Source: Escherichia coli (GTDB taxonomy: Bacteria > Pseudomonadota > Gammaproteobacteria > Enterobacterales > Enterobacteriaceae). From it: a stretch of 64,000 nucleotides of DNA. The position numbers were made by a program, and so were the translations under genes. The notes beneath the pieces were generated by a model that did not search any database, was not told the origin of the DNA, and saw only the letters and a list, made by a program, of their open reading frames with translations. Where the stretch lies: NCBI RefSeq assembly GCF_051903065.1, contig NZ_CP178438.1, one strand, 5' to 3'. This document shows, one piece after another, positions 3,217 through 64,000 of this stretch (its first letter is position 1; each line of letters begins with the position of its first letter).

Positions 3217-3293
<77 letters not shown>

Positions 3294-3350
3294 TTTAGTC
3301 CCGGCGCTTGAGCTGCGGTGGTAGTAATACCGCGTAACAAGATTTGTAGT

Positions 3351-3427
3351 GGTGGCTATAGCTCAGTTGGTAGAGCCCTGGATTGTGATTCCAGTTGTCG
3401 TGGGTTCGAATCCCATTAGCCACCCCA
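3351..3427 (+). tRNA. hisR: tRNA-His (anticodon GUG), with the extra 5' G(-1)
   Basis: GGTGGCTATAGCTCAGTTGGTAGAGC...CCCATTAGCCACCCCA; anticodon loop region TTGTGAT. Confidence 0.95.
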
Positions 3428-3447
3428 TTATTAGAAGTTGTGACAAT

Positions 3448-3534
3448 GCGAAGGTGGCGGAATTGGTAGACGCGCTAGCTTCAGGTGTTAGTGTCCTTAC
3501 GGACGTGGGGGTTCAAGTCCCCCCCCTCGCACCA
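3448..3534 (+). tRNA. leuT: tRNA-Leu (anticodon CAG), long variable arm
   Basis: 87-nt class II tRNA GCGAAGGTGGCGGAATTGGTAGACGCG...CCCCCCCTCGCACCA. Confidence 0.95.
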
Positions 3535-3576
3535 CGACTTTAAAGAATTGAACTAAAAATTCAAAAAGCAGTATTT

Positions 3577-3653
3577 CGGCGAGTAGCGCAGCTTGGTAGC
3601 GCAACTGGTTTGGGACCAGTGGGTCGGAGGTTCGAATCCTCTCTCGCCGACCA
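3577..3653 (+). tRNA. proM: tRNA-Pro (anticodon UGG)
   Basis: CGGCGAGTAGCGCAGCTTGGTAGCGC...TCTCTCGCCGACCA; anticodon loop TTTGGGA. Confidence 0.95.
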
Positions 3654-5202: not shown

Positions 5203-6858
5203 TTAATCAGATTTAATCTGCGCGCGTGGTGGATACTTTTTCAGGATCTCCATATACGCGTGCATTTCGGTCTGTAGCGGTACACCCATCGGAATATGGC
5301 GCACGCCGATAGAGTCGCTCTCCTGCGGATCGGTGTACAGGTTAAACACCGACGATCCGGCTGTTTGCATTACTGTGCCGGTGAATCCACCCTGATATCC
5401 GCTCTGGGTATAAGCGTAAGGTTGCTGAATCAGGACGTGATACTTGAATTCATCCATACGCACAGCAGCGAGTTTACCGTTGAGGAAGTAGTGCTCGGCC
5501 TTACGGTTAGACTGACCATTTGTTCCCAGGAAGAAAGATGTCTGGTCCACACCATCGATAAAGGTGGTTTTCGGCACTAAATTCGCCACTTTCGCGCCAG
5601 GATGCCCTGCCAGATCCAGCGCGGTAGGGAAGAGATCTGCCAGATCGACAATACCGTCAGATTTACGCGGTTGGATCATCCCTTTCCAGTACACGAAAGT
5701 CGGAACGCGAACGCCGCCTTCCCAGGTAGATCCTTTCGCACCACGGAACGGTGTGCGTCCGTGCGGCGGTACTTCGGCTTCCGGTCCGTTATCGGAGGTA
5801 AAGACAATCAGCGTGTTATCAAGCTGACCGTTTTTCTCTAGTGCTTTATACAGATTAGCGAACACATCGTTCATTTCCACCATGCAGTCGCCATACGAGG
5901 TGCGTGCCGGAGAGCTACCCGCATATTTGGCGTTCGGGTAGTTATCGAAGTGACAGCCGCGAGTGCCGTAATAGAGGAAGAAAGGCTTCTCACTCTTCGC
6001 CATCTTGTCGAGGAACTTAACGCCATATTCCATCCAGCGTTGATCCAGATCTTCCATATATTTCGGCGTAATGTCGGCAATGGCCTGTTGTTCGCCGCCG
6101 CGCACCGCATGAACGTCATCTTTGCTAAATGGTAATTGCTTGATGTATTCAGAACGGTCCGGACTCAGGGCCACTTCCGGATTGACGTGAACGTCGCGCC
6201 ATTCGGTGTACATATCAGACACCGAGTTAAAGCCACGGAAATCATCAAAGCCAACGTTCTGCGGCTGCGACTCTTTGTTTTCCCCCATATGCCATTTCCC
6301 GATGGCCTGAGTGACGTAGCCCTGATCGTGCAGCAACTGCGGCAGCGTGGTTAACCCTTGCAGCCCGCCCGGTTGCCCGTACATTGGCGGCATCAGAATG
6401 CCGTGGTGGATGGAGTATTGTCCGGTGAGAATGGTGGCGCGGGTTGGGGAAGAGCTTGGTTGAGAATACGCCGAAGTTAAAATCAGCCCCTGGCTGGCAA
6501 CGGCGTCGATATCTGGTGTAGGGTTACCCACCGCCACGCCGCCACCGTTAAAACCGACGTCCATCCAGCCCACATCGTCCAGCAAGAAAACAACCACATT
6601 CGGTTTCTTACCGGTTTTTTTCTCAAGTTCTGCCAGCTTCTGCTGGGTTTCTTTATCCTGCGCCGGATGCTGCATTACTGGCATCATGTTGTCGGCAATA
6701 GTGGTCGCCGGTTTAACCAGATACTGGTTTGGGTGATCGTATCCGGCAAAGCCTTTGCGTGCGGTGGCAGTTGAAGGGGTATCTGCTGCGCTGGCCATGA
6801 GAGGAAGAGCGGCGGCGACAGCAACAACAAGAAGTTTGGGTGAAAACGAAAATTCCAT
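5203..6858 (-). CDS. aslA: Arylsulfatase-like protein with signal peptide, 551 aa; Ser-type sulfatase signature
   Basis: N-terminal signal peptide ([15 protein letters not shown]); sulfatase signature S-x-P-x-R-xxx-L-T-G present as [11 protein letters not shown]. Confidence 0.85.
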
Positions 6859-7282
6859 GCAAAATGCTCCGGTTTCATGTCATCAAAATGATGACGTAAT
6901 TAAGCATTGATAATTGAGATCCCTCTCCCTGACAGGATGATTACATAAATAATAGTGACAAAAATAAATTATTTATTTATCCAGAAAATGAATTGGAAAA
7001 TCAGGAGAGCGTTTCCAATCCTACCTCTGGCGCAGTTGATATGTAAGGCAGGTTTATTATATCGCGTTGATTATTGATGCTGTTTTTAGTTTTAACGGCA
7101 ATTAATATATGCGTTATTAATTGAATGAATTTTATCATTCATAATAAGTATGTGTAGGATCAAGCTCAGGTTAAATATTCACTCAGGAAGTTATTACTCA
7201 GGAAGCCAAGAGGATTACAGAATTATCTCATAACAAGTGTTAAGGGATGTTATTTCCCGATTCTCTGTGGCATAATAAACGA

Positions 7283-7489
7283 GTAGATGCTCATTCCATC
7301 TCTTATGTTCGCCTTAGTGCCTCATAAACTCCGGAATGACGCAGAGCCGTTTACGGTGCTTATCGTCCACTGACAGATGTCGCTTATGCCTCATCAGACA
7401 CCATGGACACAACGTTGAGTGAAGCACCCACTTGTTGTCATACAGACCTGTTTTAACGCCTGCTCCGTAGTAAGAGCAGGCGTTTTTTT
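7283..7489 (+). ncRNA. glmZ: Small RNA GlmZ (activator of glmS translation), about 207 nt including its intrinsic terminator
   Basis: No ORF; sequence GTAGATGCTCATTCCATCTCTTATGTTCGCC... matches GlmZ as I recall it; located in the aslA-hemY spacer; ends in hairpin aacgcctgctc/gagcaggcgtt plus T7; CATAAT -10 hexamer at 7271-7276. Confidence 0.8.
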
Positions 7490-7536
7490 ATGTGTCAGGA
7501 AGGCCCCGGAGGTGCTTGCCTCCGGGTGAGAAGGAA

Positions 7537-8733
7537 CTACTGTGGTGGGTTGTTCTGCAACGTTAACATCAAACCGTCGCGACGCATCGCTGCAGCTTCT
7601 TCCGGCTTGTGCAGTCTGTCCAGCGCGTCGGCAAGCCATGCGTAATCGTAGGCGTCCGGACGTTGTTTCAGCGCTGCGCGGAAGGCGAGCGATGCTTCCT
7701 GCCATTCTCCGTGCTTCATCAGTGACTGGCCCAGTGTGCTCCACAACAGCGGGCGATCGCCGACGTTTTTGATTTGCTGGCGCAGCACTTTTTCAAGCTG
7801 TTCAGGGTTATTGGTTTTCAGACGCGGGATCGGCAGCAGTAGGCGATCGTCATACTGGCGTTTCAGGCCGTCGATGATAATTTGCTGGGCAGTATCATGA
7901 TCGTCACATTCAATAAGATGTTCCGCCATTGCCACCTGCAACGCTACCTGATGACGCGTTTTCCGGCTTTGGTTTTTCCACCAGTTACGCAAACCTTCGC
8001 TACCGTTATCGGCACGCGCCTGATCCATCAGGCCAATCCATGCCTGTTGTTCCAGCATTGCACGATGTTCTTCATCACCAACATGGGCTTTCGCCATTGA
8101 TGGGATAATATCCAGCAGCGAACTCCATGCACCTGTGCGGATATACGCCTGTTCCGCCAGACGTAATACTTCCGGATGGCGTGGCGTAACTTCCAGCAGC
8201 TTATCCACGCCGTGGCGTGCAGCATGGTTTTCATTACGGGCCAGTTGCAGACGTACACGGGTGATTTCTACCGGAATGGTGTCATTGCCGGCCAGCTCCG
8301 CTGCGCGTTCCAGATGTTGGTTGGCGCGCGCTTCATCACCACGTTGTTGCGCGGCTTCGGCAGCCAGTAGATAGTTCACCACCGGTTGTTCAGCGTGATC
8401 GGCATTTTTCGCCATCAGCTTTTCAACTTGCTGATAATCGCCTTCCGCCAGTTTCAGCAGCGCCTGTTCGGTCTGCTTACGTGCACGGCGACGCTTACGC
8501 CCGACAAACCACCCACGGGTGTGCGCGCCAGTGCGGAAGATCCGCCGCAGTAGCCACTCAATGGCAAACAGCACTACCATCGCCAGAATCAATATGATCG
8601 CCAGGCCCGTGACGCTGGTTTCGATATTGTAGTTGTCGGTCTGGATCAGCACATAACCCTGATGACCGGCAATCATCGGGCCAACCACGATCCCCGCAAT
8701 CAGCAACACAAAGAGCAATAACACTTTTAGCAT
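7537..8733 (-). CDS. hemY: HemY (TPR-like inner-membrane protein of the hem operon), 398 aa
   Basis: ORF with N-terminal TM segment; last gene of the hemCDXY arrangement. Confidence 0.85.
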   Translation of the reverse strand: MLKVLLLFVLLIAGIVVGPMIAGHQGYVLIQTDNYNIETSVTGLAIILILAMVVLFAIEWLLRRIFRTGAHTRGWFVGRKRRRARKQTEQALLKLAEGDYQQVEKLMAKNADHAEQPVVNYLLAAEAAQQRGDEARANQHLERAAELAGNDTIPVEITRVRLQLARNENHAARHGVDKLLEVTPRHPEVLRLAEQAYIRTGAWSSLLDIIPSMAKAHVGDEEHRAMLEQQAWIGLMDQARADNGSEGLRNWWKNQSRKTRHQVALQVAMAEHLIECDDHDTAQQIIIDGLKRQYDDRLLLPIPRLKTNNPEQLEKVLRQQIKNVGDRPLLWSTLGQSLMKHGEWQEASLAFRAALKQRPDAYDYAWLADALDRLHKPEEAAAMRRDGLMLTLQNNPPQ

Positions 8734-45487: not shown

Positions 45488-47730
<2,243 letters not shown>

Positions 47731-61197: not shown

Positions 61198-62739
<1,542 letters not shown>

Positions 62740-62807
62740 CCTTAAAGAAGCGTACTTTGCAGTGCTCACACAGATTGTCTGATGAAAATGAGCAGTAAAA
62801 CCTCTAC

Positions 62808-62884
<77 letters not shown>

Positions 62885-62926
62885 AATTTGCACGGCAAAT
62901 TTGAAGAGGTTTTAACTACATGTTAT

Positions 62927-63002
62927 GGGGCTATAGCTCAGCTGGGAGAGCGCCTGCTTTGCACGCAGGAGGTCTGCGGTTCGATCCCGCATAGCTCCAC
63001 CA
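62927..63002 (+). tRNA. alaT: Spacer tRNA-Ala (anticodon UGC)
   Basis: GGGGCTATAGCTCAGCTGGGAGAGCGCCTGCTTTGCACGCAGGAGG...CATAGCTCCACCA. Confidence 0.95.
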
Positions 63003-63176
63003 TCTCTGTAGTGATTAAATAAAAAATACTTCAGAGTGTACCTGCAAAGGTTCACTGCGAAGTTTTGCTCTTTAAAAATCTGGATCAAGCTGAAAATTGA
63101 AACACTGAACAACGAGAGTTGTTCGTGAGTCTCTCAAATTTTCGCAACTCTGAAGTGAAACATCTTCGGGTTGTGA

Positions 63177-64000
63177 GGTTAAGCGACTAAGCGTACACGG
63201 TGGATGCCCTGGCAGTCAGAGGCGATGAAGGACGTGCTAATCTGCGATAAGCGTCGGTAAGGTGATATGAACCGTTATAACCGGCGATTTCCGAATGGGG
63301 AAACCCAGTGTGTTTCGACACACTATCATTAACTGAATCCATAGGTTAATGAGGCGAACCGGGGGAACTGAAACATCTAAGTACCCCGAGGAAAAGAAAT
63401 CAACCGAGATTCCCCCAGTAGCGGCGAGCGAACGGGGAGGAGCCCAGAGCCTGAATCAGTGTGTGTGTTAGTGGAAGCGTCTGGAAAGGCGCGCGATACA
63501 GGGTGACAGCCCCGTACACAAAAATGCACATGCTGTGAGCTCGATGAGTAGGGCGGGACACGTGGTATCCTGTCTGAATATGGGGGGACCATCCTCCAAG
63601 GCTAAATACTCCTGACTGACCGATAGTGAACCAGTACCGTGAGGGAAAGGCGAAAAGAACCCCGGCGAGGGGAGTGAAAAAGAACCTGAAACCGTGTACG
63701 TACAAGCAGTGGGAGCCTCTTTTATGGGGTGACTGCGTACCTTTTGTATAATGGGTCAGCGACTTATATTCTGTAGCAAGGTTAACCGAATAGGGGAGCC
63801 GAAGGGAAACCGAGTCTTAACTGGGCGTTAAGTTGCAGGGTATAGACCCGAAACCCGGTGATCTAGCCATGGGCAGGTTGAAGGTTGGGTAACACTAACT
63901 GGAGGACCGAACCGACTAATGTTGAAAAATTAGCGGATGACTTGTGGCTGGGGGTGAAAGGCCAATCAAACCGGGAGATAGCTGGTTCTCCCCGAAAGCT
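63177..64000 (+). rRNA. rrlA: 23S ribosomal RNA, 5' part (continues beyond the window)
   Basis: Begins GGTTAAGCGACTAAGCGTACACGGTGGATGCCCTGGCAGTCAGAGGCGATGAAGGACG. Confidence 0.95.

Follow-up and report, generated by a model that had tools for sequence, protein, structure and literature searches.

GlmZ is a small RNA that activates glmS in the homeostasis of cell-envelope precursors, GlmS being a cell-wall precursor enzyme. The mechanism has been established experimentally in Escherichia coli K-12 (PMC4152352, PMC4737144, PMC7073468, PMC9841335), where a primary transcript of 207 nt gives rise to a processed form of about 151 nt (PMC4152352). Binding of RapZ and RapZ-dependent cleavage by RNase E were shown for the K-12 RNA both in vitro and in vivo (PMC4737144, PMC9841335); the nuclease cuts 6 to 9 nt downstream of the central stem-loop SL2 (PMC4737144, PMC7073468, PMC9841335), at positions mapped around nt 151-155 (PMC4737144). 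The determinants for Hfq are the 3' oligo-U and the single-stranded region (PMC4737144). At the level of transcription, glmZ of E. coli represents a type with a single constitutive sigma-70 promoter, for which the segment from -40 to +32 is enough for expression in K-12 and mutations of the -35 and -10 elements abolish it (PMC3045617).

Two sets of relatives are useful for comparison. GlmY, from the same Rfam clan (CL00011), has a homologous SL1/SL2 fold and a terminator and binds RapZ (PMC4737144), but its single-stranded region has only 12 nt without complementarity to glmS, RNase E/RapZ does not cleave it and its gene adjoins glrK/qseE. Salmonella, Yersinia and most other Enterobacterales have orthologues of glmZ itself, which are convergent with hemY and whose RNAs keep the structure and the pairing site. 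Their promoters differ: in most other Enterobacterales glmZ has a sigma-54 promoter (TGGCAC-N5-(G/C)TGCA), often with GlrR-site-like motifs, whereas in Escherichia neither sigma-54 nor GlrR elements exist and a sigma-70 promoter is present instead (PMC3045617).

The DNA analyzed here (the window) is a chromosomal stretch of 64,000 nucleotides from E. coli, for which an initial annotation made from the sequence had placed GlmZ, as a plus-strand unit of about 207 nt, in the gap between aslA and hemY. We estimate at about 98% the probability that positions 7283-7489 of the plus strand are the glmZ gene of E. coli. The features discussed below are the following, with the basis of each assignment in brackets:

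5203..6858, minus strand: aslA, divergent upstream neighbour, 551-aa ORF (ORF list; annotation in MG1655 and in a spacer-identical record)
7247..7276, plus strand: predicted sigma-70 promoter (direct reading; identity to K-12)
7283..7489, plus strand: glmZ, full-length primary transcript of 207 nt (Rfam RF00083, MG1655 alignment, literature length)
7283..7347, plus strand: stem-loop SL1 (Rfam consensus, MFE fold, RNAalifold helices 1-3 with 2 compensatory pairs)
7355..7428, plus strand: central stem-loop SL2, GlmZ nt 73-146 (Rfam consensus; RNAalifold helices 4-7, 100% paired)
7429..7454, plus strand: single-stranded region of 26 nt, nt 147-172 (unpaired in the consensus structure)
7432..7451, plus strand: predicted base-pairing site for glmS, nt 150-169 (best accessibility-corrected interaction)
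7455..7489, plus strand: intrinsic terminator SL3 with an 11-bp stem, an 8-nt loop and the T-run 7483-7489 (terminator scan)
7394..7744, minus strand: spurious ORF of 116 aa, lying opposite the 3' half of glmZ and overlapping the 3' end of hemY in another frame (comparative evidence)
7537..8733, minus strand: hemY, convergent downstream neighbour, 398-aa ORF (ORF list; annotation in MG1655 and in a spacer-identical record)

Scanning the whole window with Rfam 15 placed the family GlmZ_SraJ (RF00083) at exactly 7283-7489 on the plus strand, with 218.3 bits against a gathering score (GA) of 60 and E = 3.5e-56, and the match ran untruncated from position 1 to 214 of the 214 positions of the model, which bears out the identity proposed initially. 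The unit starts at 7283 with GTAGATGCTCATTCC, as had been read, and lies in a non-coding gap of 678 bp (6859-7536). Pairwise alignment to glmZ of K-12 MG1655 (SraJ/RyiA, b4456) gave 206 identities over 207 nt, the 5' end coinciding with that of the annotated gene; the promoter and the aslA/hemY context are also the same, as are the three-stem architecture, the glmS pairing site and the terminator stem. Between 7200 and 7540 the window differs from MG1655 at three positions in all: 7207, which is 76 nt 5' of the glmZ start, 7494, which is beyond the T-run, and 7470, the sole difference inside the RNA, where a G replaces the A of K-12 in the terminator loop. GlmZ nt 1-187 thus show no mismatch to K-12. 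The family traits that a sequence can reveal (covariance model, architecture, glmS complementarity, hemY synteny, E. coli-type promoter) are all present, and no result among our analyses contradicted the assignment; the biochemical features would follow from near-identity to the characterized K-12 RNA. In the MG1655 RefSeq record the glmZ feature (NC_000913.3, 3986432-3986603; 2933-3104 of locus L001) covers 172 nt and ends just before the terminator stem. The scan also returned SNORA68 on the minus strand, at 20.9 bits for a GA of 43 (E = 0.2); we rejected this eukaryotic family as a chance match driven by the terminator hairpin.

The structure of the RNA was studied in a single sequence and across species. 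The minimum free energy fold of the whole RNA (z = -2.9 relative to shuffled sequences) contains one stem-loop at the 5' end and one in the centre, followed by the terminator. For the comparative analysis, one genome per species was scanned for the conserved 17-mer ACGTTGAGTGANGCACC, loci presenting the GlmZ 5' motif and a T-run were retained, and 55 of them were aligned with the window to give 56 sequences; as conserved motifs seeded the alignment, the invariance of their columns is built in. RNAalifold recovered SL1, SL2 and the terminator, left the stretch between SL2 and the terminator unpaired, and predicted 42 pairs, with compensatory double changes in 11. Standard pairs occupied 99.7% of the cells of this consensus structure, a proportion falling to 32-43% when the partners were slid by 1-3 columns, and none of 500 shuffles matched the observed pairing, the number of compensatory pairs or the covariation score. 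In the terminator, 7 of the 9 aligned pairs underwent compensatory changes across species. The architecture characteristic of GlmZ, SL1-SL2-single-stranded region-SL3 with a 3' oligo-U, is therefore found here, and the single-stranded region 7429-7454 has the same length as that of K-12, 26 nt (PMC4737144). The terminator hairpin itself (7455-7484, AACGCCTGCTC-CGTAGTAA-GAGCAGGCGTT) has 11 pairs, 7 of them G-C, and precedes a T-run; it was the only site returned by a terminator scan of 6800-7600, a region for which shuffled sequences give 0.3 sites. The initial annotation had described a strong terminator ending in gagcaggcgtt plus seven T: the strong hairpin with its T-run stands, but two T were counted twice, since the run 7483-7489 has 7 T of which the first two are also the last two bases of the stem.

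Upstream of the RNA, the -10 hexamer CATAAT noticed initially is indeed present at 7271-7276, with 6 nt (7277-7282) separating it from 7283, and it is preceded by TGg at 7268-7270 in an extended -10 arrangement. The best candidate for the -35 element is ATGTTA (7247-7252), which has 3 of 6 consensus matches and an 18-nt spacer, the exact hexamer being a tentative choice. A simple consensus scanner for sigma-70 promoters did not report the glmZ promoter in its output because the -35 is weak. The segment from -75 to -1 (7208-7282) has the K-12 sequence without differences, and we infer the promoter from this identity to a K-12 promoter mapped by mutations; activity at 7247..7276 would likewise be that measured in K-12 (PMC3045617). 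Just 5' of +1, a sigma-54 motif (TGGCA-N6-8-TGC[AT]) occurs in 61 of the 76 orthologous loci with usable upstream sequence, and many orthologous loci also have GlrR-site-like motifs (TGTC-N10-GACA). Both kinds of motif were looked for upstream of glmZ and are absent from the window and from the other Escherichia loci, which fits the published sigma-70-only type of E. coli (group III; PMC3045617). We also considered TGGCAT (7269-7274) as the relic of a sigma-54 -24 element and rejected it: its counterpart in other genera is the -12/-10 part (GTGCAATAAT) of their sigma-54/sigma-70 promoters, and orthologue comparison shows unrelated sequence in Escherichia at the true position of the -24 TGGCAC.

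The genes glmS, rapZ, glmY and hfq are all outside the window, and pairing was calculated with the glmS leader of K-12, that is, the glmU-glmS intergenic region of MG1655. When the cost of opening both partners was taken into account, the top interaction joined GlmZ nt 150-169 (UUGUUGUCAUACAGACCUGU) to positions -40..-22 of glmS (ACAGGUUGACCGACAACGA), with a duplex of -19.2 kcal/mol and a net energy of -11.6 after opening costs, the runner-up being at -3.0. The accessibility-aware calculation thus returned the published site, in agreement with the pairing with the glmS leader that had been announced. The complementary leader segment is ACAGGUUGACCGACAAC, the elements GTTGTC...AGACCTG of the GlmZ site are conserved across orthologues, and the single-stranded region hence has, on the K-12 leader, the glmS complementarity that separates GlmZ from GlmY. 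Positions -40..-22 form the left arm of the hairpin occluding the glmS ribosome-binding site, and the same arm is the published target of GlmZ (PMC4152352). Energies without accessibility were uninformative. Full-length duplexfold of GlmZ with the glmS leader, which allows huge interior loops, scored better for 488 of 500 shuffled GlmZ sequences, and in a 25-nt window duplex scan the published site came 5th with -19.2 kcal/mol, the best energy being matched by 39 of 60 shuffles. Hybridization energy alone gives no statistical support to the GlmZ-glmS site, which is singled out only by the accessibility-corrected calculation. The shuffle comparison covers plain duplex energies only, because shuffled sequences lose their structure and would bias the accessibility version.

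Transferring the K-12 mechanism to this strain gives the following scenario. The constitutive sigma-70 promoter, with its extended -10 TGgCATAAT and weak -35, would produce a 207-nt RNA, which consists of two 5' stem-loops, the 26-nt single-stranded region and the intrinsic terminator with its 3' oligo-U tail. With the help of Hfq, nt ~150-169 would pair with glmS mRNA at the left arm of its Shine-Dalgarno-masking hairpin, the hairpin would open, and translation would be activated and the mRNA stabilized. The segments serving as Hfq determinants, the 3' oligo-U and the single-stranded region, are present and the same as in K-12, and their identity suggests that activation of glmS by the window RNA is Hfq-dependent. 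When glucosamine-6-phosphate (GlcN6P) is plentiful, the adaptor RapZ would bind SL2 and present GlmZ to RNase E, whose cut in the single-stranded region (around nt 151-155) would remove the pairing site; at low GlcN6P, RapZ would be sequestered by GlmY acting as a decoy sRNA, and full-length GlmZ would build up. Processing by RapZ and RNase E is expected here from the identity of nt 1-187 to K-12, which also makes SL2 the probable module for RapZ binding and RNase E recognition (PMC4737144) and would put the cleavage position at 7433-7437 of the window.

Since GlmY and GlmZ are homologous and have the SL1/SL2 architecture in common, we considered whether the window RNA could be the paralogous decoy of the same Rfam clan, which sequesters RapZ without pairing to glmS. 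One lower-scoring overlap from the same clan was suppressed in the Rfam scan, and the search motif finds two loci per genome in several species. Against these points, the GlmZ model won the clan competition with 218 bits, the locus is the annotated glmZ of K-12, it adjoins hemY instead of glrK/qseE (PMC3045617), and its 26-nt single-stranded region has the complementarity to glmS that is wanting in GlmY (PMC4737144). A higher score for the GlmY model and a loss of glmS complementarity were both checked for and neither was seen; the traits of GlmY, a glrK/qseE neighbour and a short single-stranded region without glmS complementarity, were not found at this locus, which differs from GlmY both by its 26-nt complementary region and by its hemY neighbour. 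That the RNA is GlmY has therefore a negligible probability. Just as implausible is a decayed copy of glmZ that this strain no longer expresses. The weak -35, unflagged by the consensus scanner, and an expression deduced from K-12 would leave room for it, but K-12, with its active promoter and functional RNA (PMC3045617), has exactly the same bases from -75 to -1 and over nt 1-187, the sole change in the RNA sits in the terminator loop, and the gene is single-copy and near-invariant over 5424 genomes.

A protein-coding interpretation of the same DNA was also weighed. The mechanical ORF list contains, at 7394-7744 on the minus strand, a frame of 116 aa with a GTG start, which the initial annotation had dismissed as spurious on account of the sRNA. 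If it were a real protein, the plus-strand RNA signal would be secondary, and indeed no stop interrupts the frame in this strain or in 23CRST027, an identical strain. The frame has, however, an internal stop in MG1655, two in E. coli locus L046 and one in locus L096, and it is frameshifted in E. albertii. No equivalent exists in related loci: an antisense ORF of at least 100 aa over the terminator occurs in 0 of 71 hemY-linked loci, where the median is 32 aa. The first 208 nt of the ORF lie over hemY in another frame, and the substitutions among close relatives in this overlap track the hemY frame, 148 of 184 falling at codon position 3. PGAP annotates no CDS at 7394-7744 in identical genomes, and the GTG start and Arg/Ala-rich product are as expected of GC-rich coding DNA read out of frame. 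The ORF is spurious and not a gene, as had been claimed, on independent comparative evidence (stops in other E. coli, lack of conservation, periodicity of substitutions in the hemY frame) and not merely through the presence of the sRNA; a real protein is very improbable. Somewhat less remote, though still very unlikely, is that hemY transcription reads through into glmZ. A strong G+C-rich hairpin of 8 bp (CCCGGAGG-CAAGCA-CCUCCGGG, 7505-7526 of the minus strand) lies 10 nt beyond the hemY stop codon without a U-tract, the glmZ terminator is followed in the minus direction only by UUAAAA, and the 106-nt minus-strand stretch as a whole has a folding z of -5.3. Such read-through would generate an RNA complementary to the 3' half of GlmZ, where the sites for glmS pairing and RNase E lie, and would place GlmZ under an additional control linked to the haem operon; translation of the strain-specific 116-aa open frame from this antisense RNA is a weaker alternative.

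The glmZ gene is highly conserved among E. coli. Of 5424 complete genomes with a match, 5422 have the 207 nt at 99% identity or more, while the whole 678-bp spacer reaches this level in just 1415 of 5425, and therefore the sRNA is much more strongly constrained than its surroundings. The gene is present in a single copy per complete E. coli genome; megablast left 2 of 5426 complete genomes without a match, and it returned one matching place on a plasmid record and two places in a few genomes. Both flanking genes, aslA and hemY, have the same offsets in MG1655 and in an E. coli record whose spacer is 100% identical. The convergent hemY lies 47 nt past the end of the sRNA, in the arrangement with hemCDXY characteristic of glmZ, and the glmZ-hemY linkage is found in 71 loci across Enterobacterales with gaps of 9 to about 1470 nt.

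The spacer between glmZ and hemY is a hotspot of insertions (L004, L022, L068, L077, L090 and L104): one E. coli strain (NZ_CP124483.1, L004 1706-2296) carries a 591-bp 'hypothetical protein' CDS starting at the glmZ T-run, and several Enterobacter/Phytobacter-like loci have an insert of about 1.4 kb from glmZ to hemY. In Yersinia, Morganella, Brenneria, Serratia and Pectobacterium, the 17-mer occurs at two loci per genome, one linked to hemY and one not (L017/L018, L020/L021, L029/L030, L041/L042, L057/L058, L063/L064 and L078/L079); the second is presumably the paralogue glmY, in which case the 3' segment of SL2 would be common to both sRNAs in those genera.

Elsewhere in the window, a cluster of four tRNAs (3217-3650, plus strand) lies upstream of aslB, and an rRNA operon occupies the end (61198-64000, plus strand), with 16S at 61198-62739, two tRNAs, StyR-44 at 63070-63169 and 23S from 63177. 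The start of 16S is 53,915 bp from glmZ, a distance that we take to be about 4.8 kb longer than in MG1655 and that would suggest an insertion somewhere between the two in this strain. At 45842-46093 of the plus strand, Rfam matches 'Erse small RNA' (RF02757) over its full length, with 318.5 bits for a GA of 138. The match ends in UAAAUGA; because this resembles a stop/start overlap, it probably falls within the 3' end of a protein-coding gene.

GlmZ is an already known sRNA, and finding it here is ordinary and brings no new biology. Its value is for annotation only: the other E. coli genomes listed (H1-H20), annotated by PGAP and three of them identical across the spacer, carry no glmZ feature under the match, which a detailed look at one of these genomes bore out. 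Routine annotation thus leaves glmZ unseen, and recognizing it closes a gap left by automated annotation and removes the false protein call at 7394-7744.
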